From positions 2,855,900 through 2,919,899 of the forward strand of contig OY970373.1 of NCBI GenBank assembly GCA_963718645.1: a DNA stretch of 64,000 nt, given 5' to 3'. Made by a program: the position numbers and the translations under genes. Below, one piece after another: positions 1-47,953 of this stretch (its first letter is position 1; the number at the start of each line of letters is the position of its first letter). The notes beneath the pieces were generated by a model. The model searched no databases. It saw only the letters and a program-made list of their open reading frames with translations, and was not told where the DNA came from. The stretch is from an uncultured Acidobacteriota bacterium (GTDB lineage: Bacteria; Acidobacteriota; Thermoanaerobaculia; Multivoradales; UBA5704).

Positions 1-1903
1 GCAGACCTCACAAGCCATTGTTCTCATTGATAACGCCGAATCTCTTGACAAGGAATGGTTGTCCCGCTTCCTTGATAACTGGCTCTCGGGGATCTCTACA
101 GCTCAGCTCATCGTCACTTCGACGCTCTCTCTGAGATTAAGCCATCCAGGTTATCGAATATATCCACTCGGCGGTCTCTTACCTGCCAAAGTGGATGCAA
201 TTTTCTCTTTCCTTGGCTCTGAACTACAGGACCGCTTTAGTTCGGTAGAACTCCTGGCCGCAGCTAAGCAACTTGGCTATCTGCCACAAAGGCTTCTCTA
301 CATGCGTTGGCTGAATCCGGAAGGCCAGCAACAACTGGCTGAAGTCGCAACTGAACTCGCCGCCAATACAGACTCAGTGTCTGTCGCCAGCATTCGGAAA
401 AGGAGTGACGGATTTGTTGGCCATTATCTCGCGTTGGGTCATGTAAGGACCCTTCAATTTGACGAAGAGCTGTTAGCCGCGCTTTGGGATAGCTTAGGTG
501 GTGGTTCAGCTGCGCCATATGTAGCCATTCGCGATCGTCTGCTGAGGGAAGGCCTCCTAGTAAAGACATCGGAAAGCGCCAACGTAGGGAGCCTCCGCAT
601 TAACCCCGGAGTGCATTTACAGCTCGAAAAACTATTGGCAAGTAGCGTGGGCGTATCTCATCTACCGCATATAGATTATTTTTTGTCGGGTTATTTTAGA
701 CAGCGTTTCGAGAAATCTTCAATGCCTGACCTCCAAGACTTGGGGCATTACATATACCACTCTGCTCGCTGCGGTAATCTGCCGAACGCTGCGGAATATG
801 TCCTATCTGATAGGCGCCTTGAAACCCTGCGTGGGCAAGGTCTGACTTTGGCTTTGCGCCGAGTTCTGATAATTCTCGATGAGGAGCTAGATACAGTTCG
901 GTTGAAGACTTCTCGACCGGCGGAATGGAGGGATGAGGCGCTTTTGCAGGTGCGGTGTCGCACTCTTCTTGAGCTTGCTAGATGCCAATGCGAACTGAGC
1001 GAATATGTTGAGTGCCTAAACTCTCTCTCCGCTCTAGACGAGGTAAAGCAGACTCTTGCTCCAAACCTTTTGGAGGCGGAGCTGAGACGGAAGATGAATA
1101 TCCTTCGTGGGATCAGTTTCGGTTGCTTGGGGAGATTGGAGGAATGCATTCGCTCTTATGTTGCGGTGGTATCTAATGCACTCGACAGTAAAGGGCTTGA
1201 TCCTGGTTCCATTGAAGCTCTAGGATACGCTGCAATGGTGACAGGATATATTGACATGGAGAGAGCGCTAAGCTTGGGAGAATGTAGCCTAACCTTAGCA
1301 GAGAGTTTGGGAGATGAATTGATACTTACAAAGAATCGATGCAGCTTGGGCCAAACAGCTTTATATTCTGGGCGCTTTGGCCAGGCTGTTGAGCTTCTCG
1401 GAGCGGCTGAAGAGTGGTGCCGGGGCAGTGAAGAACGCAAGGGCGACCGACGAGAGTTGGGCCGCGTGCTCATTCCCGCAGCAATGGTTATGATGATGGT
1501 AATCAGGGATGGCGAGAAGTCTTTATCTCTTGCGAAAGAGGCTCTAGCTATTAATCTTTCGGTTGGCGATAGACGGAGGTACGCGAGGGCTAAGATCGTA
1601 GAAGCGTTAGCTACGATTTGTGCAGGCATGCGGGAGAAGGGGGCGTCTTTGCTAGATGAGGGCCTTGACCATTTGTACACAAGCCGTGATTGGCTTAACC
1701 TAGTGCTTGGCGCTTTAACCTCAGGCTACCTTCAGGGGGCTAGTGGCCTTGATGAGATTGTAAGGTTGGCGACAGTTAGCTCTGATGATCAGCTCTGGGC
1801 AAAATTTCTCAAGGAAGCTCGCGGAGACCACGAAATGGTACCTACATTGGGGAGGTTTTGGGAACGACATTATCTCCCCTTGCTGCAAGGCGCAGGAATT
1901 TAG
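1..1903 (+). CDS. STAND (NB-ARC-like) NTPase, 5'-truncated at the window edge, with a long helical/TPR-like C-terminal region
   Basis: The reading frame is open from nt 2 and continues through the ORF-track start at 59 (TTG). The N-terminal fragment reads ..IVLIDNAESLDKEW (Walker-B-like hhhhDD) followed by AQLIVTSTL (sensor-I-like hhhTTR), then ~550 aa of helical repeats. GC is lower than in the rest of the window. Confidence 0.55.
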   Translation, partial: QTSQAIVLIDNAESLDKEWLSRFLDNWLSGISTAQLIVTSTLSLRLSHPGYRIYPLGGLLPAKVDAIFSFLGSELQDRFSSVELLAAAKQLGYLPQRLLYMRWLNPEGQQQLAEVATELAANTDSVSVASIRKRSDGFVGHYLALGHVRTLQFDEELLAALWDSLGGGSAAPYVAIRDRLLREGLLVKTSESANVGSLRINPGVHLQLEKLLASSVGVSHLPHIDYFLSGYFRQRFEKSSMPDLQDLGHYIYHSARCGNLPNAAEYVLSDRRLETLRGQGLTLALRRVLIILDEELDTVRLKTSRPAEWRDEALLQVRCRTLLELARCQCELSEYVECLNSLSALDEVKQTLAPNLLEAELRRKMNILRGISFGCLGRLEECIRSYVAVVSNALDSKGLDPGSIEALGYAAMVTGYIDMERALSLGECSLTLAESLGDELILTKNRCSLGQTALYSGRFGQAVELLGAAEEWCRGSEERKGDRRELGRVLIPAAMVMMMVIRDGEKSLSLAKEALAINLSVGDRRRYARAKIVEALATICAGMREKGASLLDEGLDHLYTSRDWLNLVLGALTSGYLQGASGLDEIVRLATVSSDDQLWAKFLKEARGDHEMVPTLGRFWERHYLPLLQGAGI

Positions 1904-1999
1904 GGGGGACAATGGACCCAAGCGACGAGGAGTTTTGTTTGAGGAAATGGCGCGCTAAACCGGCTCGGGTCGACGGTCTTCTATAATGGAAATGACATT

Positions 2000-2677
2000 A
2001 TGGACACGGTTAAGCTTATCAAAACGTACATAGAACAGATCAAGCGGCCCAATATTCTCTTGGGAATAGACGGAGGCCAGGGATCCGGAAAAACAAGCTT
2101 TATTGGTAAACTGAGTACAGCATTGGATCGCTACAATGTTGTAAACATTGAGACTGATGACTATTTACTTGATCGAGATCAACGCGAGGACTTGCCAGTC
2201 TCGTTCTTTGAATCCTTCGAGAACCTATCAGATCTATATGATTTCGAGAGGTTCTCCGAAACGGTCAGGACTTTGGCTGTATCGGTGCAAACTGAGATTA
2301 TCTTGGGAGGGCTCTACGATAGGAAGACCGGAAGACGCGATCGTTCAGAAAAAATAAAACTGAGTGATAAGAACATTGTTATTGTGGGTGGGCCATATTT
2401 GCTGTCGGCGCTATTGCCGAGATTCGATCTGACGATTTTCCTTGATGTCGATGAGGCGGTCCGCTTGGACAACACGCTGCGGCGCACACTAGATAACAAT
2501 AATAGATCGATAGAATCGCAGAACGCGGTCTTCGGCAAATTCGAGAAGTTCTTCTATCCTTACTATTCCGACAAACTGGCTGAGTTCGACGTAATCATTG
2601 ATAACAATGATTGGTCGAATAATTATATAACAAGAGATCGTGTCGGAGTACATAGCCCCGCGGTCGGCAACCCTTAA
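2000..2677 (+). CDS. P-loop NTPase, uridine kinase/phosphoribulokinase-like nucleoside/nucleotide kinase fold
   Basis: Walker A GIDGGQGSGKTSF lies near the N-terminus; the protein is 225 aa and sits in the low-GC block. Confidence 0.6.
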   Translation: MDTVKLIKTYIEQIKRPNILLGIDGGQGSGKTSFIGKLSTALDRYNVVNIETDDYLLDRDQREDLPVSFFESFENLSDLYDFERFSETVRTLAVSVQTEIILGGLYDRKTGRRDRSEKIKLSDKNIVIVGGPYLLSALLPRFDLTIFLDVDEAVRLDNTLRRTLDNNNRSIESQNAVFGKFEKFFYPYYSDKLAEFDVIIDNNDWSNNYITRDRVGVHSPAVGNP

Positions 2678-2717
2678 GGCCACGTTTAAAATAACTACAA
2701 TTTACAATATTTAATCT

Positions 2718-3401
2718 ATGACACTTAAGGACAAGGCTGTGGTAATCACCGGAAGTAGCAAGGGGCTTGGAAAAGCTCTTGCTGCAGCGTTTATCCATGA
2801 GGGCTCAAGGGTAGTTATCAGTGCACGATCGATAAGTGAATTGGATAATGCGGCCCGCGAAACTGGAGCAACTCCTTATCTTGCGGATGTGACTAAAGAA
2901 AGGGAGGTCGTGAAGCTCGCCCAATTCAGCAAGAGGCAATTTGGGACGATTGACGTCTGGATCAACAATGCGGGTACCACCATTTCCCATTCATCAATTG
3001 AAGAAATTGACGATAGGGCGGCTCATCAGGTCATGGAGGTGAACTTCTTCGGCACGTTCTATGGTTCGCGAGCGGCGATCTCAATAATGAAAGGGCAAAA
3101 GTATGGCGTCATTGTGAATATTGTCTCGATGAGCGCCTTTGTTGGCCGTCCTCAGTCATTGGTGTACTCCGCGAGCAAATGGGCGGCCCGTGGATTCACG
3201 AAAGGTCTTCGTATGGCTCAAGAGCCAAACCATATCTCTGTGATTGCAGTGCATCCAGGAGGCATCAAGACTACGATGTTTGGCGATCAACTTCCAGTGG
3301 GTTACGAAGACTGGATGGAGCCGTCTTTTGTTGCGAAAAGCATAGTACGAAACTTGAGGCGCAGCTCACCAAAAGAAGAGTTGGTAGTGCGCAAAAAGTA
3401 A
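2718..3401 (+). CDS. short-chain dehydrogenase/reductase (SDR)
   Basis: Has the VITGSSKGLGKA (TGxxxGxG) motif, NNAG, and the YSASK catalytic YxxxK. Confidence 0.85.
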   Translation: MTLKDKAVVITGSSKGLGKALAAAFIHEGSRVVISARSISELDNAARETGATPYLADVTKEREVVKLAQFSKRQFGTIDVWINNAGTTISHSSIEEIDDRAAHQVMEVNFFGTFYGSRAAISIMKGQKYGVIVNIVSMSAFVGRPQSLVYSASKWAARGFTKGLRMAQEPNHISVIAVHPGGIKTTMFGDQLPVGYEDWMEPSFVAKSIVRNLRRSSPKEELVVRKK

Positions 3402-3533
3402 TTGCGACCTACTCACCTCGATCAGGTAAAGCTAGATCACCTTAAGGAGGTTCTAGTTGCCCAGTCGCTGGAGCGATTCTCGGAATATGCAGAAGGACAC
3501 GACTTTTGAGATATGGCATAGGAGAGTCAGTTC

Positions 3534-4103
3534 ATGACAAATTTCTTGGATAAGCTAACTGCGATTAGTACCATGTTGACGGCTATTGCTGCGGCGGCGG
3601 CGGCGTTCATCGCTTTCTTCCAGACACGGGCAGCATCAAAAATCGCAAAATCAACTGCTGATCAAGCGATGGCACTCGCCAAGTTTAACGCTGAATTGCA
3701 ATCCGTCCAGCATTTTGACACTCAATGGCAGTCGGACCGTATGATCAAAGTACGCCGCGGCGCAGCAGCGGCGCTGCTGCGCGAAGAGCCGAGCGTAGAT
3801 GTCGATGAGGTCCTTGATTTCTTCGAAGAGATCGCACGCCTCGTAAAGCGTGGTATCTTGCCGATAGAGACGGCCTGGGATGCCTATTATTGGCCGATTG
3901 CGAATTATTGGGCGAAGTCCGCGGCCTACGCGCAGGAGGCTCGCGACGATGAGGGTGCGTCGTGGACAAACTTGCCCGAGGTATTAACGCGGCTACAACA
4001 AGTAGAATCAAAAGAAAGCGACCGGCCGATCAATGCAGTTTCTCCGCGCGAGGCTCAGACCAGGGTATTCTTAGAAGGTGAAACCAAGCTGGAATTGCTA
4101 TGA
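3534..4103 (+). CDS. membrane-anchored hypothetical protein (N-terminal TM helix)
   Basis: A GGAGAG RBS lies 8 nt upstream. The N-terminal hydrophobic helix is LTAISTMLTAIAAAAAAFIAFF and the rest is soluble. It is the last gene of the low-GC block. Confidence 0.55.
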   Translation: MTNFLDKLTAISTMLTAIAAAAAAFIAFFQTRAASKIAKSTADQAMALAKFNAELQSVQHFDTQWQSDRMIKVRRGAAAALLREEPSVDVDEVLDFFEEIARLVKRGILPIETAWDAYYWPIANYWAKSAAYAQEARDDEGASWTNLPEVLTRLQQVESKESDRPINAVSPREAQTRVFLEGETKLELL

Positions 4104-4310: not shown

Positions 4311-5909
4311 TCACGCCGCCTTGCCCTCCTCGGTCGCTTCTCGTCCCCCGGGACTACCCTCCATCAATTGCCTAATGTTTCCAAGCTTCTCTCTTGACTC
4401 CGCCTCAGCCAAAAAGGTTCGAACTTCGTGGAGAAAGGTCCGCAGCTCGATACTGGTCGAAGTTGTTGACCATCGTCTGAACGGTTTTGCCGCGTCAATC
4501 CTGAGTTCCCGGTCTTGGAGCCGAGGGTTCGAACCGGCGATTTGAAGGATGAGCCGTTTTTCATCCGGAGTGCCGGTTCGGAACCGCGAAGCCGCTTCTT
4601 CATTGAACGCAACGAGGAGACGGGCGGGTTCGAACCGGTCCTCATCTTGGCCGAGCTTCGCAATCTCCTGAGCCATCCGGAGACGGTCTCGGGTGATCTC
4701 CTGGCGCTCCTGTAGGAACTCGGCGTCGTCCAAGATGTCCCGGATGCGGAGCTTCTTCAGGTTCGCGAGCTGGCGGTCGAGCGCCGCGGCCTGGTTTTCG
4801 AGCGCCCGCCGTTGCTTTCCGAGGATCTCCTCCTCGTCGGCGGTGAGCCGGCTAAGGCGTTCCATCTCGAAGCCGTGGAACTTTTCGGGGATCGAGATCT
4901 CTTCGAGGAACTGTGCCGCCTGTCCGTCCAGCCGCTCAGCGGAGATGGAGCGTTGGGCGCAACGGTAGTCGAGGCGACGCCAGGAGCAGTGGTAGTAGGT
5001 GTAGTGGGAGCCGAAGCGGTTTGTCTTGTGCTCAGCCGTGACGGCGAAGCCGCATTCCCCGCAGCGGATCATGCCGGTATAGGGGAAGGCATAGGTCTTC
5101 CGCCGCGGTCGCCCCGGGCGGCCGAGAAGCTCCTGCACCCGCTCGAATTCGGAGAGGGTGACCATGGCCTCGTGCTTCCCCGGGTAGATCTTTCCTTCCC
5201 ACTCGATCACCCCCGCATAGAAGGGGCTCTTGAAGATCTTGTAGATGGCGCTCTTCGTGAAGGGAGCGCCGCCGATCCTCTTATGGGTCCGCGTGACGAG
5301 TCCCCATTCCTTTCCCGCCATCTCCCAGATGCGACGGGGAGTCGCCTCCTCGGAGAGGAGGAGCCGCCACATCTTCTGGATCACGTGGAACCGCTCGGGG
5401 TCGGGGATGATCTGCCCACTCTCGCGGTCGTTCAGATACCCCGCCGGCGCGAAGTTCGGGAGCCAGCCCTTTTCCACCTTGGCCCGCATGCCGCGGCGGA
5501 CGTTCTCAGAGAGGGCGTCCACGTAGTACTTGGAGTACCCGAAGATAATTGAGAGCATGAACTTGCCCTGCGAGTTGTTCTCGAAGGTGTGGTTCGCGAA
5601 GCGGAGGTCTTTGAGCGTGCCTTTGTCGAGAAGGTAGATGATCCGGCCGCCGTCGATCGAGTTCCTCGCGAGCCGGTCCGGGTGCCAGGCGATGATTCCT
5701 TCCGCCTTGCCCTTCTCCACCTCGTGGAGCATCTCCTCGAAGACGGGACGCCCCGGAGCCTTCGCGCTCTGCGCTTCCTCGAAGGTCCGGACGATCGTGA
5801 GGCCCGAGCCTTCGGCAAGGCGCTCCATCTCAACTCGCTGCGAATCGATGGAGAGGATCTGCCGATCTTCCGATTCGCTTGACTTGCGGCAGTAGAGAAA
5901 ATATTTCAT
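4311..5909 (-). CDS. large serine recombinase (resolvase/invertase N-domain + recombinase domain + zinc ribbon)
   Basis: The N-terminus YCRKSSESEDRQILSIDSQ carries the catalytic Ser motif and the protein is 532 aa. A Cys-rich segment RCGECGF....CS is typical of the zinc-ribbon region of large serine recombinases. Confidence 0.85.
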   Translation of the reverse strand: MKYFLYCRKSSESEDRQILSIDSQRVEMERLAEGSGLTIVRTFEEAQSAKAPGRPVFEEMLHEVEKGKAEGIIAWHPDRLARNSIDGGRIIYLLDKGTLKDLRFANHTFENNSQGKFMLSIIFGYSKYYVDALSENVRRGMRAKVEKGWLPNFAPAGYLNDRESGQIIPDPERFHVIQKMWRLLLSEEATPRRIWEMAGKEWGLVTRTHKRIGGAPFTKSAIYKIFKSPFYAGVIEWEGKIYPGKHEAMVTLSEFERVQELLGRPGRPRRKTYAFPYTGMIRCGECGFAVTAEHKTNRFGSHYTYYHCSWRRLDYRCAQRSISAERLDGQAAQFLEEISIPEKFHGFEMERLSRLTADEEEILGKQRRALENQAAALDRQLANLKKLRIRDILDDAEFLQERQEITRDRLRMAQEIAKLGQDEDRFEPARLLVAFNEEAASRFRTGTPDEKRLILQIAGSNPRLQDRELRIDAAKPFRRWSTTSTSIELRTFLHEVRTFLAEAESREKLGNIRQLMEGSPGGREATEEGKAA

Positions 5910-6389: not shown

Positions 6390-6508
6390 CATCATGAAGA
6401 ACCTCATAACAATCAGGATCAAGGCCGAGCTTCCCGACACGCGTGCCGGCCCGACGACGACTCTTTCTATATCATTCACACTCCGTCGCCCAATTTACCC
6501 TCTTCACT

Positions 6509-7000
6509 ATGGAAAACACCCCAACCCGCATCTTCGCTATTGACCCCACGACCAAAGGCTTCGGCTATGCCGTCTTCGAGCTGCCGTTCCGCCTCGTCGA
6601 ATGGGGGATCGCCCGTGTCGCCGGCGAGAAACATGCGGGCACTGTCCTCCGGTTCGAGCAGCTTCTCGCTCGCTTCCGTCCGGACGCGGTGGTCTTGGAG
6701 GATGCCGAGGCCCCCGGTTCGCGCAGGCAACCCCGCGTCCGGCGCCTGATCGAGGCCCTCACGAGACTAGCCCGCGAGCGCGGCATCGCCGTGTACACGA
6801 TCGCAAGGAGCGCCGTCCTAAAGTGCTTCTCTTCCACCGACAACGTCGCAACGAAGCAGTCCATAGCGAGGAATCTCGCCGGACGTTTCCCGGAGCTTGC
6901 GGAGCAGTTGCCGCCGCCCCGCAAGCTTTGGCAAACCGAGCATGAACGCATGTCGGTCTTCGACGCCCTGGCCCTCGCCGTGACCCACGCGAACTCGTAA
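6509..7000 (+). CDS. RuvC-family Holliday-junction resolvase (crossover junction endodeoxyribonuclease-like)
   Basis: RIFAIDPTTKGFGYAVFE resembles the RuvC N-terminus IxGIDPGxxxxGYGV. VVLEDAE supplies the second acidic residue. The C-terminal FDALALAVTHA matches the RuvC DAxDALAxAxxH motif. Start chosen at the internal ATG (MENTPTRIF); the ORF-track start at 6443 is a GTG. Confidence 0.7.
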   Translation: MENTPTRIFAIDPTTKGFGYAVFELPFRLVEWGIARVAGEKHAGTVLRFEQLLARFRPDAVVLEDAEAPGSRRQPRVRRLIEALTRLARERGIAVYTIARSAVLKCFSSTDNVATKQSIARNLAGRFPELAEQLPPPRKLWQTEHERMSVFDALALAVTHANS

Positions 7001-7116
7001 TCCGGCCCGACATGTTCTCTTCGCGCAAGGCGGCCCCCGAGGCCGCCTTTTGCGTTCCTGCCCCGGCCGCTACCCTGATTCGCAGAACTCCGACAATTTT
7101 AAGAAAGGAGGATGAG

Positions 7117-8052
7117 ATGCCCGAGGGCTTCATCTCGTTTGCGGAGGTAAAGCGTGCAGTCACGATGGAAGCGGTTCTCACCCGCTACGGACTCCTGGAG
7201 GGATTGACCCGCAAGGGCCAGAACCTCGCGGGTCCCTGTCCCTTCTGCAAAGGCAAGTCACAGCGCCAGTTCCAGGCGAATCTCTCGAAGAACGCCTGGT
7301 ACTGCTTCGGATGCAAGGAGGGCGGGAACGTCCTCGACTTCGTCGCGAAGCGCGAGAAGGCGAGCGTGCGTGCCGCGGCCCTGAAGCTCGATTCCTGGTT
7401 CGAGCTCGGACTCGGGGCAGAGTCTCCATGTCCCGAGCAACCCCGGACTCCAACCCCGGCGCCACCGGCCGCGACGGAGGTAGCGCCCACAGAGAACCCG
7501 CCCCTGGCCTTCACCTTGAAGACCCTGGACCCCCGCCATGCGAGTCTCGAGGCCCTGGGACTCGGGGAGGCGACCATCGACCGCTTCGGCGCGGGGTACT
7601 GCGCGAAGGGACTCTTGAAGGGGCGGATGGCGATCCCGATCCACAATCGCTACGGGGAACTCCTCGCCTACGCGGGTCTCGCCCTCGGCGAGGAAGCTCC
7701 CCGCTACCTCTTCCCGCCGAAGTTCCATCCGGCGCTCGAAGTCTTCAACCTGCATCGCCTGATCGAGGTCCCTGAGGAGAGGGGGCCGCTCTACCTTGCC
7801 CCCGATGTCCTCGGAGTCCTCCGGCTCGCCGAGGCCGGGTACGTCTCGGTCCTCGGCCTCTTCGACGGCTCGCTCTCCGAGGCGCAGGAGGAGGCCATCC
7901 GGGGCGCCCTCTCGCTCTACGAGGGATTCCAACTCGTAGGCGAGGGCTTCGCCGACCGCACGATTGCCCGGCTCGCGCGGTATGCGGGTGTCTCCTGGGT
8001 CGCAGAGCTGTCCCAGAACCCCCTTACCGAAGCAGGGAGGGAGTATCAATGA
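7117..8052 (+). CDS. CHC2 zinc-finger DNA primase-like protein
   Basis: AGGAGG RBS precedes the ATG at 7117. CPFCKGKSQRQFQAN...WYCFGCKEGGNVLDFV matches the zf-CHC2 motif of DnaG/phage primases. Confidence 0.7.
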   Translation: MPEGFISFAEVKRAVTMEAVLTRYGLLEGLTRKGQNLAGPCPFCKGKSQRQFQANLSKNAWYCFGCKEGGNVLDFVAKREKASVRAAALKLDSWFELGLGAESPCPEQPRTPTPAPPAATEVAPTENPPLAFTLKTLDPRHASLEALGLGEATIDRFGAGYCAKGLLKGRMAIPIHNRYGELLAYAGLALGEEAPRYLFPPKFHPALEVFNLHRLIEVPEERGPLYLAPDVLGVLRLAEAGYVSVLGLFDGSLSEAQEEAIRGALSLYEGFQLVGEGFADRTIARLARYAGVSWVAELSQNPLTEAGREYQ

Positions 8053-8330
8053 GAACGGCGGAGCCTTTTGCCTTGGGAGGGGTCGTCGCGACTCCCGCCG
8101 CCCTCCAGGCCTTCGCCGACGCCGAGGAGAACTACCTGCCCTATCTCATGCGCCACGCGGGAGGTGATTGGGGCGACGTTTGCCCGGAAGATGCTTCTGC
8201 GAACGACGAAGCGCGCGACGCCGGCGAGCGCATCATCTCCGCATACAACCTTCGCTGCGGCACGAGGGTGTGGATCATTACCGAAGCCGACCGCTCCTCC
8301 ACCTGCATCCTCCTCCCCGAAGAGTATTGA
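8049..8330 (+). CDS. small conserved hypothetical protein (93 aa), translationally coupled to the primase-like gene
   Basis: ATGA overlap with the upstream stop. Notable motifs are GDWGDV...WIITEADRSSTCILLPEEY. A hairpin terminator follows. Confidence 0.5.
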   Translation: MRTAEPFALGGVVATPAALQAFADAEENYLPYLMRHAGGDWGDVCPEDASANDEARDAGERIISAYNLRCGTRVWIITEADRSSTCILLPEEY

Positions 8331-8337
8331 TTCCCCC

Positions 8338-8375
8338 CGCCCCGCGGCACGGCCGTCGGGGCCTTTTCTTTGGCC
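8338..8375 (+). terminator. intrinsic terminator candidate
   Basis: GCCCCG-cggcacggccgt-CGGGGC hairpin followed by cttttctttgg. Confidence 0.5.
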
Positions 8376-8601
8376 GCAGACTTAGGCCCCTACCATCCGC
8401 AGCTCGAAGTCCTGGAGTCTCAGCACGAGGAGGGCGTACGCGAAGGCAAGGGAGGTCGCCGAGGAGTATTCCGAGGCCTTGACCGGGAAGGCCTCTTCCC
8501 GCTCTGCCCGGTCCTTATCTTGGTAGCTCACGGAGGCTCTGAAGTGTCGCACCTTGCGCACGGGAGTGTCTTTCTTTGGGCTGATACTTGGCTAAATGCT
8601 A

Positions 8602-9237
8602 TCACGACCGCCGGGCACCCGGACGATCCGGGCTTTCGCTCACGAGGTCGAGGAGAGCCGACTTCGCCCGCAACTCCTCGGTCCACCGCTCGGGCTCCGT
8701 CCCTATGAGATCGCGGTACGTTTCGACAATGAGCGCCCGGAGATTCATGACCGCCTCTTGCCGGGTGCCTCCCCTCGCGGAGAGCTTCACCTCGATGAGG
8801 TGCGCCGCAAACCCCGGCCCGTCGAATTCGATGAGGAGATCCATGGGACGCCTGAACCGAAAGGTGTTCGGCAGGAGGGTTTGGACTCGAAGAGCGACGC
8901 CGCTTTGATTGTGCCAGAGCGCCTCGTAGGCGCTCTGGATATCCGCCGTGACCTTCTGGGACAAGAGTATTGCCTTTCCGATCAGGTCCATGGCCTTGTC
9001 GGCGGCCGCCTTCTCGCGCGGCTTGCGGCGCAGGGTGCGACCCTGCCGCGCCTTGCTTTCCCGTGCGATTTCCCGCACCGCCTCGATCGCCCGCGGGGGG
9101 AAGAAGCGTCGCCGGCCCCGTCTTTCAAAAGGGATGCGGTCGCCGTGCTTCTTCAGGAAGACGAGGAGCCTATCGTAGGAAACGCCCGCTTGGCTCGCCA
9201 CCTCGGTCATCGAATATCGTTCTTTTCTCTCGCTCAT
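8602..9237 (-). CDS. HTH-domain DNA-binding protein (N-terminal HTH, unknown C-terminal domain)
   Basis: YSMTEVASQAGVSYDRLLVFLKKHG is an HTH-like N-terminus; 211 aa. Confidence 0.5.
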   Translation of the reverse strand: MSERKERYSMTEVASQAGVSYDRLLVFLKKHGDRIPFERRGRRRFFPPRAIEAVREIARESKARQGRTLRRKPREKAAADKAMDLIGKAILLSQKVTADIQSAYEALWHNQSGVALRVQTLLPNTFRFRRPMDLLIEFDGPGFAAHLIEVKLSARGGTRQEAVMNLRALIVETYRDLIGTEPERWTEELRAKSALLDLVSESPDRPGARRS

Positions 9238-10838: not shown

Positions 10839-12308
10839 ATGCCGCAACCCAACCCCACGCCACTTAGCCTGAGCCTGGCCTTCCTGCGCCTCATCCAGGG
10901 CTGGAGCCAGGCGAAACTGGCTAAGGCCACCGGGATCTCGGTGAAGATGCTCTCGCGGTATGAGACGGGGAGGACCACTCTCTCCCGAGAGCTGCTGGAA
11001 AGGATCGTTGTCGCGATGGGCTTCGGGCCTGAGGCGATCGATTGGAGCCTCTTCTATCTCCGACAGGTCCGCCAGGAGATGGATGCCGCCGCCTCGCCCG
11101 CGGGGCCAACGGCAGCGGAGCGCCGGCTCATCGAACGGGCCACGCTCGCGAAGGCCTTGTCCGGGGCGGATGAAACGCGCTCGGAGCTCACCCGCTCCCT
11201 CCGGAACCTCCGCGCGGAGCAAGACCGCCGGGAGGCACAGCGCCTCTGGGAGTACCTGAAGGGCCGCCGGGCCAGAGACCGGCGGGTGCTTGTCGAGGGC
11301 GGGCGGGAGTACAAGAGTTGGGCTCTCTGCGAGCGGCTCTGCTTTGCCAGCTTGACGGCTGCGGCGGACGACTCCGTCGAAGCAGTGGGATTGGCGGAGT
11401 TAGCCGTGAGGGTTGCCGAGCTGGTGGGGAGGGAGGAGCCCGAGCACATGGGCCTCCAGGGCTATGCCTTCGCTTTTCTCGGGAACGCTCGCCGAGTCCA
11501 GGGAAATCACCCAAGCGCCGAGGAGGCATTCGCCCAATTTGAGCAGTTGTGGAGTGGGGGAAGTCCCGCAGGCCACTGTCTCCTCGATGGAGCGCGCCCC
11601 CTCGACCTCAAGGCGTCGCTACGGAGGCATCAGGGAAGCTTCGACGAAGCCTTGGATCTGCACGCCCGGGCACTCGCAATGGCGAACCCGGCTGACCACG
11701 GTTCGTTCCTACTCAACAAGGCAAAAACTCTGGAGGAAATGGCCCGCTACGAAGAAGCGATCGAGACGCTGAAACAAGCTGAACCCTTATTAGGTGGCGG
11801 ACCGCGCGAGTCACGGCATTGGTTCGCGCTCCGGTGCAACCTTACGGTCAATCTTTGCCACCTGGGGCGCTTTGATGAGGCGGAAGCATTCTTGCCGGAA
11901 GTGCGGCAACTGGTAGACCGGTCTGGCAATCGACTCGACAAATTGCGGGTGCGTTGGCTGGAGGGACGAGTCGCAGCCGGCATGGGACGGTGGGACGAGG
12001 CTCTCGCCGCTCTGTCCCAGGTGCGGGCGGAGTTTACCTCGCGCGGGATCGCTTTCGACACCGCCCTGGTTAACCTGGAGCTTGCGGTAGTCCACCTGGA
12101 GTTGGGGCGCATTGGAGAGGTAAAGACGCTCGCGCGGCAGGTGCTGCCGATCTTCAAGGCGCAAGGAGGGCACCGCGAGGCCTTTGCGGCGCTCTTGCTT
12201 TTTCGCGAGGCCGCCGAAAGCGAGGCGGTCACGGTGGAGTTTACCCAGCGTCTTATCGAATACCTCCACCGCGCCCGCTACGACCCGAACCTCCGCTTCG
12301 AAGCCTGA
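10839..12308 (+). CDS. HTH(XRE)-TPR transcriptional regulator, paralog 1 (RRNPP/AimR-like architecture)
   Basis: GGAGAAGG RBS. The N-terminus LRLIQGWSQAKLAKATGISVKMLSRYETGRTTLSRELLERIVVAMG is an XRE HTH. The C-terminal ~400 aa is helical-repeat and very similar to paralog 2, e.g. RRVLVEGGREYKSWALCERLCFASL...NARRVQGNHPSAE. Confidence 0.75.
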   Translation: MPQPNPTPLSLSLAFLRLIQGWSQAKLAKATGISVKMLSRYETGRTTLSRELLERIVVAMGFGPEAIDWSLFYLRQVRQEMDAAASPAGPTAAERRLIERATLAKALSGADETRSELTRSLRNLRAEQDRREAQRLWEYLKGRRARDRRVLVEGGREYKSWALCERLCFASLTAAADDSVEAVGLAELAVRVAELVGREEPEHMGLQGYAFAFLGNARRVQGNHPSAEEAFAQFEQLWSGGSPAGHCLLDGARPLDLKASLRRHQGSFDEALDLHARALAMANPADHGSFLLNKAKTLEEMARYEEAIETLKQAEPLLGGGPRESRHWFALRCNLTVNLCHLGRFDEAEAFLPEVRQLVDRSGNRLDKLRVRWLEGRVAAGMGRWDEALAALSQVRAEFTSRGIAFDTALVNLELAVVHLELGRIGEVKTLARQVLPIFKAQGGHREAFAALLLFREAAESEAVTVEFTQRLIEYLHRARYDPNLRFEA

Positions 12309-12740: not shown

Positions 12741-12864
12741 AATGAGTCTCCTTTTCACGGGGGCCACACGGCGCTGCCACCGTGGCCGCCGGCGCCTCTC
12801 CAACCAGTATGGTGCCTTGCGGGGAAGATTAGTCTACCCAAGAGGTCTTCAGGGAGGACCGCTG

Positions 12865-14337
12865 ATGACGAGGCAACGGGAGCTAACAGCCAGCGGCGTA
12901 GTCGTAGGCCTTCTCCGCTTGCTCCGTGGCTGGAACCAAACGGAGTTGGCGAATGCCTCCGGAATCGACAAGTCCCTGATCTCCCGCTATGAGCGAGGAA
13001 CCAAGGTGCCGAGCCGTCGAACCTTGGAACGCCTCGCCGCCGCCGCAGGCATCCCCTTTTCTTGGGTAGAGCGGCAACTCCCGGAGATCCGTGCAGCTCT
13101 CGCCGCGATCAAGGAGGGAGCACCCGCCGTGGCCCAAAGCTCCGCCGGCACGACCGATGTGGAACAAGCGGTTCTCGCACAACTCGGTTTCCAACTGGAA
13201 GGGCAGTCTCCTCCCACACCGAAGCAGGCTCGAAGAGAGGCTCAGGGGCTTTGGGACTACTTTAAAAACCGATCAGCTCGGGACCAGCGAGTGCTTGTCG
13301 AGGGCGCACGGGAATATCAGAGTTGGGCCTTTTGCGAGCGTCTCTGCTTCGCCAGTTTAGCGACTGCGGCGAACGACCCCCTGGAAGCGGTGGAGTTGGC
13401 GGAACTGGCCGTCAGGGTTGCCGAGCTGGTGGGGGGAGAGGTCCCCGAGCGCCAACGTATTCAGGGCTATGCCTGCGCTTTTCTCGGGAACGCCCGCCGG
13501 GTTCAGGGGAATCACCCAAGCGCCGAGGCAGCCTTTGGCCTTTCCGATCGGCTCTGGATCGCGAGCGCTTCCGGGAGCGCGGGTCCTCTCGATGAAGCAC
13601 GTCCGCTCGACCTCAAGGCCTCTCTCCGGCGGCACCAGGACCGATGCGCAGAAGCCCTTGAGCTGCACGACCGGGCGCTGAGATTGGCGAACCCGGCTGA
13701 CCACGGCTCGTTCCTGATCAACAAGGCAAAGACCCTGGAAGAAATGGCCCGGTTCGCCGAGGCTGTCGAAGCGCTTACCCATGCCGCGCCCCTGGTCAAA
13801 GCAGGGCGCGAACCGCGGCTCCTGTTCGCACTTCACTGCAACCTGACGGTCAATTTATGCCATTTGGACCGGTATGCCGAGGCCGAAGCCTTGTTGCCGG
13901 AGGTGCAGCGGCTCGTCGGAGGACTCGGAACGCGACTGGACACGGTACGGGTTCGCTGGCTTGAAGGCAAGGTGGCGGCCGGCTTGGGCAGACGCGAGGA
14001 AGGCATCGCCGCTTTGAAGGAGGTGCAGCAGGAATTCAAGGACCGCGGAATCGCCTTCGACACTGCCCTGGTCTCGCTAGAGCTTGCGGTGGTCCACCTT
14101 GAAGAGGGGCACACCTCAGAAGTCAAGACACTTGCGCAGCAGATGACGATCATCTTCAAGGCACAGGGAGTCCATCGGGAGGTTCTGGCGGCGCTCCGGC
14201 TTTTCTGGGACGCCGCTAAACGGGAAACGGCGACCGTGGACTTGGCGCGGCAGCTCGTGAGGTTTCTTCATCGCGCTCGGCATGACCCAGACCTGAAGTT
14301 TGAGCCTGAGAGCCAGCCGCTCCAAGGCAGGCCATAG
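12865..14337 (+). CDS. HTH(XRE)-TPR transcriptional regulator, paralog 2
   Basis: GGGAGG RBS precedes the ATG at 12865; the ORF-track start at 12742 is an upstream extension. The HTH is LLRLLRGWNQTELANASGIDKSLISRYERGTKVPSRRTLERLAAAAG. The C-terminal region is collinear and highly similar to paralog 1; 490 aa. Confidence 0.75.
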   Translation: MTRQRELTASGVVVGLLRLLRGWNQTELANASGIDKSLISRYERGTKVPSRRTLERLAAAAGIPFSWVERQLPEIRAALAAIKEGAPAVAQSSAGTTDVEQAVLAQLGFQLEGQSPPTPKQARREAQGLWDYFKNRSARDQRVLVEGAREYQSWAFCERLCFASLATAANDPLEAVELAELAVRVAELVGGEVPERQRIQGYACAFLGNARRVQGNHPSAEAAFGLSDRLWIASASGSAGPLDEARPLDLKASLRRHQDRCAEALELHDRALRLANPADHGSFLINKAKTLEEMARFAEAVEALTHAAPLVKAGREPRLLFALHCNLTVNLCHLDRYAEAEALLPEVQRLVGGLGTRLDTVRVRWLEGKVAAGLGRREEGIAALKEVQQEFKDRGIAFDTALVSLELAVVHLEEGHTSEVKTLAQQMTIIFKAQGVHREVLAALRLFWDAAKRETATVDLARQLVRFLHRARHDPDLKFEPESQPLQGRP

Positions 14338-15482: not shown

Positions 15483-16781
15483 ATGCGACACCCACGCCGC
15501 ATCGTCTTGCTGTGCCTGATGACCGCCCTGGGCGGGTCAAGCCTCGCGTCAGCCTCGGGCTTCGGGCTGTTCCAGCACGGCGCCCGCGCCATCGGGCAGG
15601 CCGGTGCCTTCACGGCCCGCGCCGTCGACCCCTCGACCGTCACCTACGACCCGGCGGGGATCACCCAGCTAGCCGGCCTGCAGGCCGAGGCCGGCCTCGA
15701 CATGAACAACCCCACGGTCGACTACCAGAGCTCGACCGGCAGCTTCGCGGCCCGGCACATTATCCAGTTCCCGCCGGCGCTCTACGTGACCTGGAAGCCG
15801 AAGAGCGGGCCACTGGCCTTCGGGCTCGGCTACGACTCCCCCTTCAACGACAGCCTGTTCTGGGATCCCGTGGACTTCCCCGGCCGCTTCGTCAACCGCC
15901 GCACCGAGCTCCGCCTTTATGAGATCCACCCGATCGTGGCCTACGACCTGGGCGAGGGGTGGAGCGTCGGCGCCGGGTTCCGCTACGCCTTCGGCAACCT
16001 CGACCGCGACGTCAACGGCATCGAGACGGTCGACGTCGTCACCACGCCCGGCCCGGCGACGCCGGTGAGCGTCGAGCTCCGGCGCAACGCCACGGCGGAC
16101 ATCAACGGCACGGCTTGGGACGCCTCCGTTCACTACGGCGCGCCGTCCTGGGGTTTCGGTGCCGTGTTCAAGAGCGCCGAGAGCCTGAAGGGGAACGGCA
16201 CCGTGTCGTACGTGACCCGTGACACACCTACCGTCCCGGGCTTCGACATGGCATTCCAGACGCAGTTCGCCAACGGCCGCACCCGGGAGTCCTTCGAGCT
16301 CCCCCGCGAGGTGCGGGGGGGCATCTGGTACGCCCCCTACCCCGAGCTGCGGATCGAATTCGACGCCAGCTTCCAGAGCTGGTCGAGCCTCCAGACGACG
16401 GACATCACCTACTCGCCCAACCCGTTCAACCCGAGCTTCCCGACCGAGAGCACGCCGCGGGACTGGAAGGACACCACCGGCCTGCGGCTAGGCGTCGAGG
16501 GGAACGTCACCGACCACTTCCTGCTCTACGGCGGCGTCGCCCGCGAGCAGTCGCCGGTACCCGACCGCACCGTCGAGCCCGGCTTCCCCTATGGCGATTT
16601 CATGGTCTACGCCGCGGGCTTCGGCTACGAATTCGCCACGATCTCGTTCGACATGGCGTACTCGTACCACAAGTTCGACAGCCACAACGCTCCGCATCAG
16701 GAGCTGCAGAACCCGGCAGTCACCGGGTCCTACAGCGGCCGCGACAGCGTCTTCGGCCTGACGGCGCGCTGGCGGTTCTAG
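15483..16781 (+). CDS. FadL/TodX/OMPP1-family outer-membrane transport protein
   Basis: Signal peptide, GFGLFQHGARAIGQAGAFTA family signature, and a C-terminal ...RWRF aromatic terminus. Confidence 0.8.
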   Translation: MRHPRRIVLLCLMTALGGSSLASASGFGLFQHGARAIGQAGAFTARAVDPSTVTYDPAGITQLAGLQAEAGLDMNNPTVDYQSSTGSFAARHIIQFPPALYVTWKPKSGPLAFGLGYDSPFNDSLFWDPVDFPGRFVNRRTELRLYEIHPIVAYDLGEGWSVGAGFRYAFGNLDRDVNGIETVDVVTTPGPATPVSVELRRNATADINGTAWDASVHYGAPSWGFGAVFKSAESLKGNGTVSYVTRDTPTVPGFDMAFQTQFANGRTRESFELPREVRGGIWYAPYPELRIEFDASFQSWSSLQTTDITYSPNPFNPSFPTESTPRDWKDTTGLRLGVEGNVTDHFLLYGGVAREQSPVPDRTVEPGFPYGDFMVYAAGFGYEFATISFDMAYSYHKFDSHNAPHQELQNPAVTGSYSGRDSVFGLTARWRF

Positions 16782-47833: not shown

Positions 47834-47908
47834 CTGGTTGGGGCGGGAGGATTCGAACCTCCGGTAGCCAGATTCAAAGTCTGGTGCCTTACCGCTTGGC
47901 GACGCCCC
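47834..47908 (-). tRNA. tRNA-Gln (anticodon UUG)
   Basis: Reverse complement: TGGGGCGTCGCCAAGCGGTAAGGCACCAGACTTTGAATCTGGCTACCGGAGGTTCGAATCCTCCCGCCCCAACCA. Cloverleaf with GGTTCGAATCC T-arm and anticodon loop CUUUGAA; close to E. coli tRNA-Gln. Confidence 0.85.
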
Positions 47909-47953
47909 AGCGTGGGGTTCACCCTTTCGGGCGACCGGCACGGGACCGCAAGC

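Follow-up and report, generated by a model that had tools for sequence, protein, structure and literature searches.

An integrative mobile element in a Thermoanaerobaculia (Acidobacteriota) genome carries seven cargo genes as one module, the downstream part of which makes up bases 1-4103 of the window (the whole 64,000-nucleotide stretch of DNA that was analysed). Our preferred reading, to which we assign a probability of about 0.55, is that this cluster represents an undescribed STAND-based conflict module, probably anti-phage, with a SIS-like protein and a STAND ATPase as its core. An identical Logan metagenome contig supplies the genes upstream of the window and gives the order Replic_Relax, HAD phosphatase, SIS-like protein, STAND ATPase with TPR-like repeats, PRK-family kinase, SDR and DUF4760 protein, after which comes the serine recombinase.

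The cargo block and its carrier element

The block and the adjoining element comprise the following genes.

2..1903, + strand: STAND-type P-loop ATPase, C-terminal 633 of 738 codons (rest of the nucleotide-binding domain, helical and winged-helix domains, TPR-like solenoid)
2000..2677, + strand: P-loop kinase of the PRK/uridine-kinase family, 225 aa (PF00485 PRK, 28.8 bits, cut-off 22; Walker A GIDGGQGSGKTS, GGQGSGKT)
2718..3401, + strand: classical SDR, 227 aa (adh_short, 170 bits; motifs ITGSSKGLG, NNAG and YSASK)
3534..4103, + strand: DUF4760 protein, 189 aa (37.6 bits, cut-off 25; one N-terminal hydrophobic/transmembrane segment at about residues 8-31)
4311..5909, - strand: large serine recombinase (Resolvase, Recombinase and Zn_ribbon_recom Pfam domains, all above cut-offs)
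6443-7000, + strand: RuvC-like resolvase, element backbone (backbone span 6443..9237)
7012-8052, + strand: CHC2 zinc-finger primase-like protein, element backbone
between the primase-like and MerR-type genes: 93-aa ORF of the backbone
8602-9237, - strand: MerR-type HTH protein, element backbone

An earlier note on this DNA had listed low GC, a partial STAND ATPase, a kinase-like protein, an SDR, a membrane protein and a recombinase, and all of these are present where it had placed them. Its proposal of a GC drop reflecting recent acquisition is likewise borne out as horizontally acquired cargo by the computed GC and GC3 boundary, with 45-52% GC in the block vs about 70% in the host. In 1-kb windows, GC is 0.51, 0.51, 0.45 and 0.52 over bases 1-4000, 0.59-0.66 over 4-15 kb and about 0.66-0.77 beyond. 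GC3 falls into three tiers: 0.49-0.57 in the cargo genes, 0.69-0.80 in the recombinase, primase, RuvC-like, MerR-like and HTH-TPR genes (0.76-0.80 for the element backbone), and 0.94-0.95 in the host genes FadL and aconitase. The cluster that carries the block was acquired horizontally.

The same signature recurs elsewhere, the GC of the system being lower than that of flanking DNA in the window and in loci L001, L006 and L011. The system is rare, with only 72 ATPase clusters at E<=1e-30 among 1.84 billion representatives searched, and its spread is patchy, covering Acidobacteriota, Actinomycetes, Phycisphaerae and one alphaproteobacterial MAG. It was absent from the phage records, plasmid records and viral contigs searched.

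The STAND ATPase

The first reading frame is open for its 633 codons from base 2 to 1903 and contains the IVLIDNAE and LIVTST motifs, as the earlier note had described; a structure model places them on the Walker B and sensor-1 strands.

17..40, + strand: Walker B strand IVLIDNAE (model beta-strand 110-115)
107..124, + strand: LIVTST at the sensor-1 position of the nucleotide-binding domain (model beta-strand 140-145; T144 nearly invariant)
653..1900, + strand: all-helical arm and TPR-like repeats, P0001 residues ~323-738

The full-length ATPase, P0001, has 738 residues on the identical contig, and the first residue in the window is its residue 106. The Walker A motif GETGCGKT spans G33-T40, outside the window, with K39 invariant. 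D115 and N116, which hardly vary across the family, form a 'DN' where DD/DE is usual, with Asn in place of the second acidic residue. The NTPase is followed by a helical domain with a GxP motif, a winged helix and the repeat sensor, which is the STAND layout. P0001 itself scores below the Pfam cut-offs for NB-ARC (17.8 bits, cut-off 23.5) and NACHT (18.0, cut-off 26.7) and above that for AAA_22 (38.2, cut-off 27). Among its relatives, NB-ARC reaches 25.4 bits in both L016 and L011, above the gathering cut-off, and L011 also scores 36.1 with nSTAND1 and 28.6 with nSTAND3.

The earlier note had placed an N-terminal effector domain just beyond the window. Upstream extension through the identical contig recovered 105 residues only (MPNSRPLVGREEEL...GETGCGKT). 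As the P-loop domain begins with them, no effector is fused to the protein. A classical Avs/NLR-type antiviral STAND protein with such an effector would account for the STAND-like NTPase and repeats and for the NB-ARC scores of the two relatives, and yet the full-length sequence, with its Walker A motif beginning at residue 33 and no N-terminal domain, leads us to reject it for the window's ATPase and to regard it as highly improbable overall. A length of ~735 aa is shared by ~90% of the family representatives, and PADLOC returned no Avs match for the ATPase, as fragment or at full length, or for its L006 and L016 relatives, nor any match for the core proteins. What stands of the suggested Avs/NLR-type antiphage role is an immune-like genomic context.

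We give equally little credence to a transcriptional regulator of the AfsR/SARP or LuxR/MalT type, an identity that the domain content led us to reject. The similarity does not go beyond the NTPase and TPR modules that these proteins have in common (the AfsR profile scores 20.7 bits against a cut-off of 1430, in the TPR region only), and no SARP/BTAD, LuxR, other HTH or other output domain occurs anywhere in the 738 residues. A SARP/AfsR N-terminus, which the earlier note had named beforehand as the outcome that would count against its own proposal, was not found either.

The nearest whole-chain structural matches of the ATPase are PH0952 and MalT, STAND proteins that transduce signals and have TPR or SUPR sensors; MalT differs in carrying a C-terminal LuxR DNA-binding output, which the window's ATPase does not have. 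Nor are MalT regulons marked by an obligate SIS partner, by fusions with TIR, CHAT and HAD or by a mobile and patchy distribution, as this system is. The TPR_12 match in the repeat region is weak. Variability there does not exceed that in the remainder of the protein, and the motifs DRRELGR and GDRRR hold four arginines (R589, R593, R630 and R631) that are invariant across the family. This pattern would suit a phage protein, and equally a small-molecule ligand or partner that is itself conserved.

The SIS-like partner and the variable accessory genes

Directly upstream of the ATPase, the identical contig encodes a highly conserved SIS-like protein of 248-249 aa (P0019), which has a SIS alpha/beta fold with a Ser/Thr-rich phosphate-binding loop. 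The loop motifs GAGRA and SASGxT are invariant in its family, and the SIS core is conserved to a degree typical of enzymes (major-residue frequency 0.75). The family profile matches PHI-type (6-phospho-3-hexuloisomerase) SIS proteins at 1.7e-9, and by sequence the partner looks like a putative PHI-like phosphosugar isomerase or binder. It nonetheless differs from PHI/HxlB/YckF, MJ1247, AF1796 and other single-domain SIS proteins by an extra N-terminal helical region of ~75 residues and by invariant motifs of its own (PANRLAHGG, PMPH, ALAD.EEYVISE and WRLGHEN.G.TGPYD). Its genes, moreover, never adjoin hexulose-phosphate synthase and instead pair or fuse with STAND and TIR.

In 11 fetched loci (L001-L003, L005-L008, L010, L011, L016 and the window's own) the ATPase gene lies next to a SIS-like gene, the two often being separated by 0-20 bp or overlapping; the spacing is 8 bp at the window's locus. 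In five ATPase homologues the SIS domain is fused N-terminally (SIS HMM E 1e-90 to 1e-94), once together with a C-terminal HAD and once with a TIR insert, and in these it occupies the site of the effector in Avs/NLR proteins. The intuition of an effector thus survives in altered form, as a gene directly upstream that some relatives fuse to the ATPase. The SIS domain is not known among the effector types of Avs proteins. The SIS-like protein and the 'effector-less' STAND ATPase are a recurrent core, probably the functional one; the pairing is rare, and we found no published description of it.

The usual company of this core consists of HAD or IMPase-family phosphatases, an SDR or RmlD-like epimerase and small membrane proteins, in varying sets. 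Relatives retain the upstream genes (HAD and SIS-like) and exchange the downstream ones, to the point that a kinase and a phosphatase may occupy the same position. Conservation of the four-gene arrangement in the window, which the earlier note had proposed to check, did not emerge: it was seen only in this genome and on the identical Logan contig. The co-directionality of the three genes after the ATPase was confirmed, as was the membership of the first in the PRK family, but it fell far short of the equivalog cut-offs for a true Udk or Prk (NCBIfam udk 51-52 bits vs 180-220; phosphoribulokinase 55.6 vs 236).

It is possible, and to be given appreciable if minority weight, that the system consists only of the ATPase and the off-window SIS-like and HAD proteins, the kinase, SDR and DUF4760 genes being unrelated cargo downstream in the same low-GC insert. 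Only nine kinase homologues were detected, and the three contigs checked hold no SIS or ATPase gene and place the kinase in unrelated contexts, beside an NTP_transf_2 gene in two and another unrelated gene in the third. SDR or RmlD-like genes do stand beside the core in L006, L007, L010, L011 and L016, yet the window's SDR is not orthologous to them (~25% identity to that of L016, no detectable kinship with that of L006), and DUF4760 is absent from all the other loci examined. The gaps of 96, 40 and 132 bp between the four genes also exceed the 8-bp gap between SIS-like and ATPase genes. Against this, all four lie on the + strand with no terminator-like site found between them, their GC3 values are alike and distinct from those of element and host, and elsewhere functional analogues take the same downstream slots, namely an enzyme of phosphoryl transfer, one with the SDR fold and a small membrane-anchored protein (the last in L001, L003, L004 and L006, non-homologous to DUF4760). 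The kinase, whose membership conservation does not support, probably does not belong to the system as a rule; it and possibly the DUF4760 protein may be add-ons peculiar to the window's locus, and the latter is a candidate for either a membrane output or independent cargo.

Instead of a conflict module, though this is rather unlikely, the genes could make up a metabolic or regulatory cassette spread by horizontal transfer. In it, a MalT-like STAND protein would sense a metabolite through its TPR region and control, by protein contacts, a short phosphosugar pathway (SIS isomerase, HAD or IMPase phosphatase, SDR or epimerase and, here, a kinase) for the salvage or synthesis of an unusual sugar. 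The enzymes all belong to standard types acting on sugar phosphates or nucleotide sugars, their motifs are intact, and RmlD-like epimerases flank the core in L007, L010 and L011. The enzyme-like conservation of the SIS core, an arginine cluster suited to an anionic small ligand, the structural proximity to PH0952 and MalT and the lack of PADLOC matches also agree with it. Several observations argue otherwise. The ATPase has no DNA-binding or other output domain, the core has no conserved transporter or glycosyltransferase alongside it, and a fixed pathway would not be expected to swap its accessory enzymes as freely as is seen here. TIR fusions that keep the catalytic Glu, together with a CHAT-STAND partner, are hard to square with housekeeping metabolism. 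The system is also rare, patchy and GC-poor, and it lies on a mobile element or beside pAgo, Dnd or Bil-like genes.

Immune-type links and proposed mechanism

The conflict-module reading draws on these immune-type links. Among the SIS-like proteins listed, 13/120 carry N-terminal TIR fusions, and the catalytic Glu was kept in all six TIR-SIS proteins read; locus L016 has the order TIR-SIS, STAND, SDR. In L009, a class II pAgo and a Cas4-like nuclease precede the SIS-like gene, and a CHAT + NB-ARC STAND protein follows it. L012 adjoins DndC/DndD, L007 adjoins E1-E2/BilD-like genes and the contig of P0006 adjoins TIR proteins; defence genes lie nearby in some loci only. TIR is found in relatives and neither within the window nor on the identical upstream contig. 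Several findings weigh against the conflict-module reading. All enzymes at the window's locus are of ordinary metabolic types, and none of the classical toxic effectors, be it a nuclease, a TIR, a protease or a pore former, is encoded there; neither the kinase nor the SDR is orthologous to an accessory gene of other loci. The lack of PADLOC matches, the evenly conserved TPR-like region, the absence from the phage, plasmid and viral records searched and the presence of defence genes near some loci only point the same way.

The system resembles Avs and bNACHT proteins in its STAND P-loop NTPase, helical and winged-helix domains and C-terminal TPR-like repeats, and in its location on mobile elements or in defence neighbourhoods. 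It differs in that the window's ATPase has neither a fused effector nor a PADLOC match to Avs or bNACHT, in its constant SIS partner, and in its sugar-phosphate and nucleotide enzymes as accessory genes; its anti-phage role is putative. The likeness to Thoeris and TIR signalling lies in the TIR-fused subset of the family and in the small membrane proteins at operon ends, which recall SLATT or other transmembrane effectors, whereas the window's locus has no TIR and no ThsA- or ThsB-type protein. In principle, a SIS domain could bind derivatives of ADP-ribose, which are phosphosugar compounds. A 2025 systematic survey of TIR systems contains no mention of a SIS-containing type.

A plausible functional analogue of the HAD, SIS and STAND combination is the PUA-Calcineurin-CE-HAD anti-phage system, in which a small-ligand-binding domain is fused to varied effectors, including TIR, and a separate HAD phosphatase is present; after ligand-triggered oligomerisation, the phosphorylated nucleotide pool is depleted (PMC12871103). 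That system has a PUA-like sensor instead of SIS and no STAND ATPase, so that the analogy is one of logic only and implies no kinship of the HAD proteins.

Alongside the composition, conserved adjacency, fusions, folds and intact catalytic and ligand-binding motifs described above, we infer a mechanism in which the STAND protein would act as an ATP-dependent oligomerising switch and the SIS partner would bind or isomerise a phosphorylated sugar or sugar-nucleotide. The activated complex would then lead to an output differing by locus. In the window and many relatives, a phosphatase could deplete or convert a pool of phosphorylated metabolites, perhaps with the help of the membrane protein; at other loci, the output may be a TIR NADase or a CHAT protease.

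A bolder and more doubtful extension is that SIS-STAND systems represent bacterial immune pathways of a new class, where an NLR-like switch controls phosphosugar chemistry instead of acting directly on DNA, RNA, NAD+ or membranes. If so, a pentose or hexose phosphate, for example, might be isomerised and then dephosphorylated or reduced, and the TIR-fused versions could target the ribose-5-phosphate end of ADP-ribose. Phage nucleotide synthesis would thereby be starved, or a new sugar-derived immune signal would be produced and read by the membrane protein.

The full-length ATPase and its SIS-like partner

Every open reading frame listed in the earlier note (STAND fragment, kinase, SDR, membrane protein and recombinase) is present at the left end of the window, as follows, with the genes beside the recombinase added in the last line.

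2–1903, forward strand: ATPase fragment, an open ORF of 633 codons
2000–2677, forward strand: PRK/uridine-kinase-family protein, 225 aa
2718–3401, forward strand: classical SDR, 227 aa
3534–4103, forward strand: DUF4760 protein, 189 aa, with one N-terminal hydrophobic segment
4311–5909, reverse strand: large serine recombinase, 532 aa, convergent to the cargo genes
6443–8330, forward strand: three ORFs immediately next to the serine recombinase: a RuvC-like resolvase, a CHC2 zinc-finger primase-like protein and one of 93 aa

A database search returned an identical full-length ATPase of 738 aa (P0001), whose residue 106 corresponds to the first residue in the window. The 105 off-window residues (MPNSRPLVGREEEL...GETGCGKT...) form the start of the P-loop domain, including the Walker A motif, and leave no place for an N-terminal effector or for a SARP or other DNA-binding domain. 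The effector domain that the earlier note expected upstream of the window is thus not borne out. P0001 begins with its P-loop domain, and its complete sequence leads us to reject a fused N-terminal effector and, as the protein has no DNA-binding domain, a SARP or LuxR regulator.

The structure model of P0001, built from a 38-sequence alignment, is confident (pLDDT 90.2, pTM 0.88). In it an NTPase core is joined to a helical and winged-helix region and to a long solenoid of helices, and IVLIDN and LIVTST are strands that occupy the Walker B and sensor-1 positions. Among solved structures, the family profile matches PH0952 (a STAND protein, 6e-13), ZAR1, AfsR, Roq1 and Cdc6. P0001 itself scores under the Pfam cut-offs for NB-ARC and NACHT and over that for AAA_22, and its relatives pass NB-ARC, nSTAND1 and nSTAND3. 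The fold model, the PH0952-type matches and these relatives together support a STAND NTPase with a TPR-like sensor, as first suggested, although the description "NB-ARC-like" applies only loosely.

Two conserved features of the ATPase bear on its possible function. Its Walker B motif is hhhhDN throughout the family, with a nearly invariant Asn in place of the usual DD/DE (D115-N116; window 29–34), which suggests slow or partner-assisted ATP hydrolysis. In addition, R589, R593, R630 and R631 (motifs DRRELGR and GDRRR) are invariant in 38 ATPases that are only 22–52% identical. All four are situated within the TPR-like sensor (window about 1451–1579), and an anionic ligand or the SIS partner might bind there. 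The sensor proved not to be hypervariable, and this, with the invariant arginines, would be consistent with the sensing of a small anionic ligand, as by MalT-type regulators.

The partner encoded next to the ATPase (245–249 aa) is unrecognised by Pfam. A phmmer search with it retrieves PHI-type SIS (phosphosugar-isomerase-like) structures, and the family profile matches AF1796 (1.7e-9), an HPS-PHI fusion (9.5e-8) and YckF (2e-6); on these homologies we assign it as a SIS domain. P0019 is the member encoded in the window's genome. The family comprises at least 185 proteins at the 90% clustering level and is strongly conserved, with about 50% identity across phyla and the invariant motifs VR.xGAGRA..AA.PANRLAHGGA, PMPH, the phosphate loop SASG.T, ALAD.EEYVISE and WRLGHEN.G.TGPYD. 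A divergent SIS-like subfamily of ~290 aa was also seen in two loci, directly after an XRE-HTH protein and without the family ATPase (L012, 5294–6175; L013, 9641–10513); L012 further encodes a 1084-aa protein without a Pfam domain, and L013 a GT2 glycosyltransferase after the SIS-like gene.

In every fetched ATPase-bearing locus with enough sequence, the SIS-like gene is the same-strand neighbour of the ATPase gene, and by this criterion of gene order the two are the conserved core. An exhaustive profile search yielded 72 ATPase clusters at E<=1e-30 (median length 735 aa). Five representatives (P0145, P0179, P0188, P0191 and P0192) carry an N-terminal SIS fusion (SIS HMM E 1e-90 to 1e-94), the homologue P0162 has a HAD domain at its C-terminus, and P0146 contains a TIR insert. 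Because they are fused in these ATPase homologues, there is strong sequence evidence that SIS, STAND and HAD proteins, sometimes with TIR, function together. The ATPase family had no match in the GTDB representative genomes, a collection that does not contain the source genome; neither it nor the SIS-like family had a match among viral contigs, and no SIS-like protein was found on plasmid or phage records.

Accessory genes and the carrier element

Exact look-up of the kinase and P0001 retrieved a metagenome contig of 7,749 bp (Logan ERR11718634) that carries the same genes, and the module reaches upstream beyond the window, with HAD and SIS-like genes 5' of the ATPase. Relatives of the ATPase retain this upstream pair; what lies downstream varies.

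Gene order around the ATPase in the metagenome contig and in homologous loci
Metagenome contig: Replic_Relax (254 aa), HAD hydrolase (236 aa), unannotated (248 aa), ATPase (738 aa), kinase (225 aa), SDR (227 aa), DUF4760 (189 aa), recombinase end
L001: HAD, 245-aa protein, ATPase, IMPase-family protein, membrane-anchored 165-aa protein
L003: SIS-like gene end, ATPase, IMPase, membrane protein
L004: ATPase, membrane protein
L005: HAD, 245-aa protein, ATPase
P0006 contig: HAD, fragment, ATPase, IMPase; two TIR proteins nearby
L006 (Amycolatopsis mongoliensis): SIS, ATPase, HAD, 147-aa protein; SDR on the opposite strand
L007: RmlD-like protein, SIS, ATPase
L008, L010, L011 (Nocardia): SIS and ATPase with IMPase-family and RmlD-like genes
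L016: SIS (as a TIR-SIS fusion), family STAND ATPase, SDR

The three genes downstream of the ATPase in the window differ in how closely they follow the core. An SDR-fold enzyme recurs beside it in two unrelated subtypes (the window and L016 SDRs share only about 25% identity), and our analysis leans, by analogy, towards its being associated with the system. The kinase sits in the slot held by an IMPase-family phosphatase in relatives; nine homologues are detectable, and all three contigs inspected place them in unrelated contexts, beside an NTP_transf_2 gene in two. The DUF4760 protein was found at the window's locus only, and the clusters of L001, L003, L004 and L006 end in small membrane-anchored proteins non-homologous to it. 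Kinase and DUF4760 protein may thus be either associated enzymes or separate cargo. The kinase P-loop, the TGxxxGxG, NNAG and YxxxK motifs of the SDR and the DPIDGT motif of the IMPase are all intact, as is the HAD DxDG motif read in L001 and L005. The kinases nearest in sequence to that of the window (L017 and L018) follow a gene for a 276-aa NTP_transf_2 (Pol-beta-type) nucleotidyltransferase, an arrangement that points to a separate, also undescribed nucleotidyltransferase–kinase pair.

The sharp drop in GC reported for the block is a real compositional break. GC is 0.45–0.52 over bases 1–4000, 0.59–0.66 between 4 and 15 kb, and roughly 0.66–0.77 thereafter, and third-position GC (GC3) falls into three tiers: 0.49–0.57 in the four cargo genes, 0.69–0.80 in the recombinase, RuvC-like, primase-like, MerR-like and HTH-TPR genes, and 0.94–0.95 in the host genes FadL and aconitase, the latter clustering at >=90% identity with Thermoanaerobaculia (Acidobacteriota) proteins; the contig that bears these genes measures 7.66 Mb. 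Judging by these tiers (window 1–21000), the element appears to be foreign to the host, and the low-GC module appears to have been inserted into it later.

The block is followed on its right by the genes for the serine recombinase, the RuvC-like resolvase, the CHC2 primase-like protein and one of MerR type; on its left, off-window, is Replic_Relax. The carrier appears to be an integrative element, possibly a mobilisable one, whose cargo is the low-GC module, and the RuvC-like and primase-like proteins, the 93-aa ORF and Replic_Relax suggest that it has its own replication functions and is not a prophage. A prophage origin was rejected, since virion genes are absent from this backbone; the recombinase had no match among viral contigs. 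The tRNA-Gln (TTG) at 47835–47909 (reverse strand), the sole RNA gene detected in the window, lies far from the element and was ruled out as its integration site. An Rfam search of the low-GC block gave no match, and promoter and terminator scans gave results at chance level only.

Two neighbouring HTH_3 (XRE) and TPR proteins (489 aa, 10839–12308; 531 aa, 12742–14337; both forward strand) are encoded between the element backbone and FadL (15483–16781), the first clear host gene to its right, and have intermediate GC3 values of 0.76 and 0.69. An HTH-TPR gene resembling this pair also occurs near the SIS-STAND pair of L007.

Immune-type associations and proposed function

Several relatives combine the SIS-like protein with components of immune type. 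TIR-SIS fusions of about 400 aa account for 13 of the 120 SIS-like proteins among the matches listed; the catalytic Glu of TIR is present in all six that were read. The TIR domain matches ThsB, pAgo-associated and SAVED-TIR models. In L009 (3331–11509), a class II pAgo (PADLOC E 6.6e-283) and a Cas4-like nuclease are followed by two unknown ORFs, the SIS-like gene and a CHAT and NB-ARC STAND protein; here the same SIS family is paired with another kind of STAND protein. L012 adjoins DndC/DndD. The SIS-STAND pair of L007 (13148–19622) adjoins genes for an ImmA/IrrE-type peptidase (together with an HTH gene), for a Prok-E2_E protein and for two ThiF/E1 proteins with matches to the PADLOC E1-E2 and BilD models, a neighbourhood resembling a ubiquitin-like (Bil/CBASS-type) conjugation module. 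System GC is below that of the flanks in the window, L001, L006 and L011, and the hosts are scattered over Acidobacteriota, Actinomycetes, Phycisphaerae and one alphaproteobacterial MAG. Directly upstream of the TIR-SIS gene of L016 (6032–7828) lie genes for a HIT-family protein and for a methyltransferase whose N-terminus faintly resembles nucleoside 2-deoxyribosyltransferases; both may be further nucleotide-processing accessories.

We favour a conflict or immune module, with a probability of roughly 55–60%. Counted against an immune role are the lack of a classical toxin in the window, the metabolic type of all the enzymes, a sensor region that is not hypervariable and carries invariant arginines, and the PADLOC result: no model matched the ATPase, SIS, SDR, IMPase or membrane proteins, and the sole weak match was of HAD to a generic "Hydrolase" model (1.3e-5). 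A mobile metabolic or regulatory cassette is an alternative that we consider rather improbable beside the TIR, pAgo and Dnd associations; it would still present an unusual DNA-binding-free STAND regulator coupled to sugar-phosphate enzymes.

Composition, adjacency, fusions, folds and motif integrity of the module are established, and for the conflict module we propose a mechanism in which the STAND protein would act as an ATP-dependent oligomerising switch and the SIS partner would bind or isomerise a phosphorylated sugar or sugar-nucleotide. The outputs would be modular: TIR or CHAT in some lineages and, in the window and many relatives, phosphatases that, perhaps with the membrane protein, may deplete or convert a phosphorylated metabolite pool. 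Immunity specifically through phosphosugar chemistry seems unlikely to us. The logic of a ligand sensor with a HAD phosphatase output has a precedent in PUA-Calcineurin-HAD, whose ligand-sensing domain and HAD phosphatase deplete dNTPs once activated and whose ligand-sensing domain also occurs fused to TIR (PMC12871103).

A literature search covering 8 million papers and preprints turned up none in which the SIS domain is combined with TIR, STAND or anti-phage terms, and SIS is unmentioned in a 2025 TIR-system survey, a 2020 eLife conflict-systems paper and a NAD-ADPr survey. Provisionally, we regard it as a STAND-based conflict system whose obligate partner and enzyme set are new. The resulting gene set would be well delimited and testable: about 70 ATPase clusters and at least 185 SIS-like proteins, drawn from soil Acidobacteriota and Actinomycetes, which current defence catalogues under-sample. 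Innate immunity draws on STAND/NLR proteins in bacteria, plants and animals alike, and those known from bacteria work by way of fused nucleases, NADases, proteases or pores. If our reading is true, a STAND switch in conserved and recurrently fused combination with a phosphosugar-isomerase-like domain, accompanied by phosphatases and reductases and, in some lineages, by TIR or CHAT domains, would represent a new output or sensing principle.
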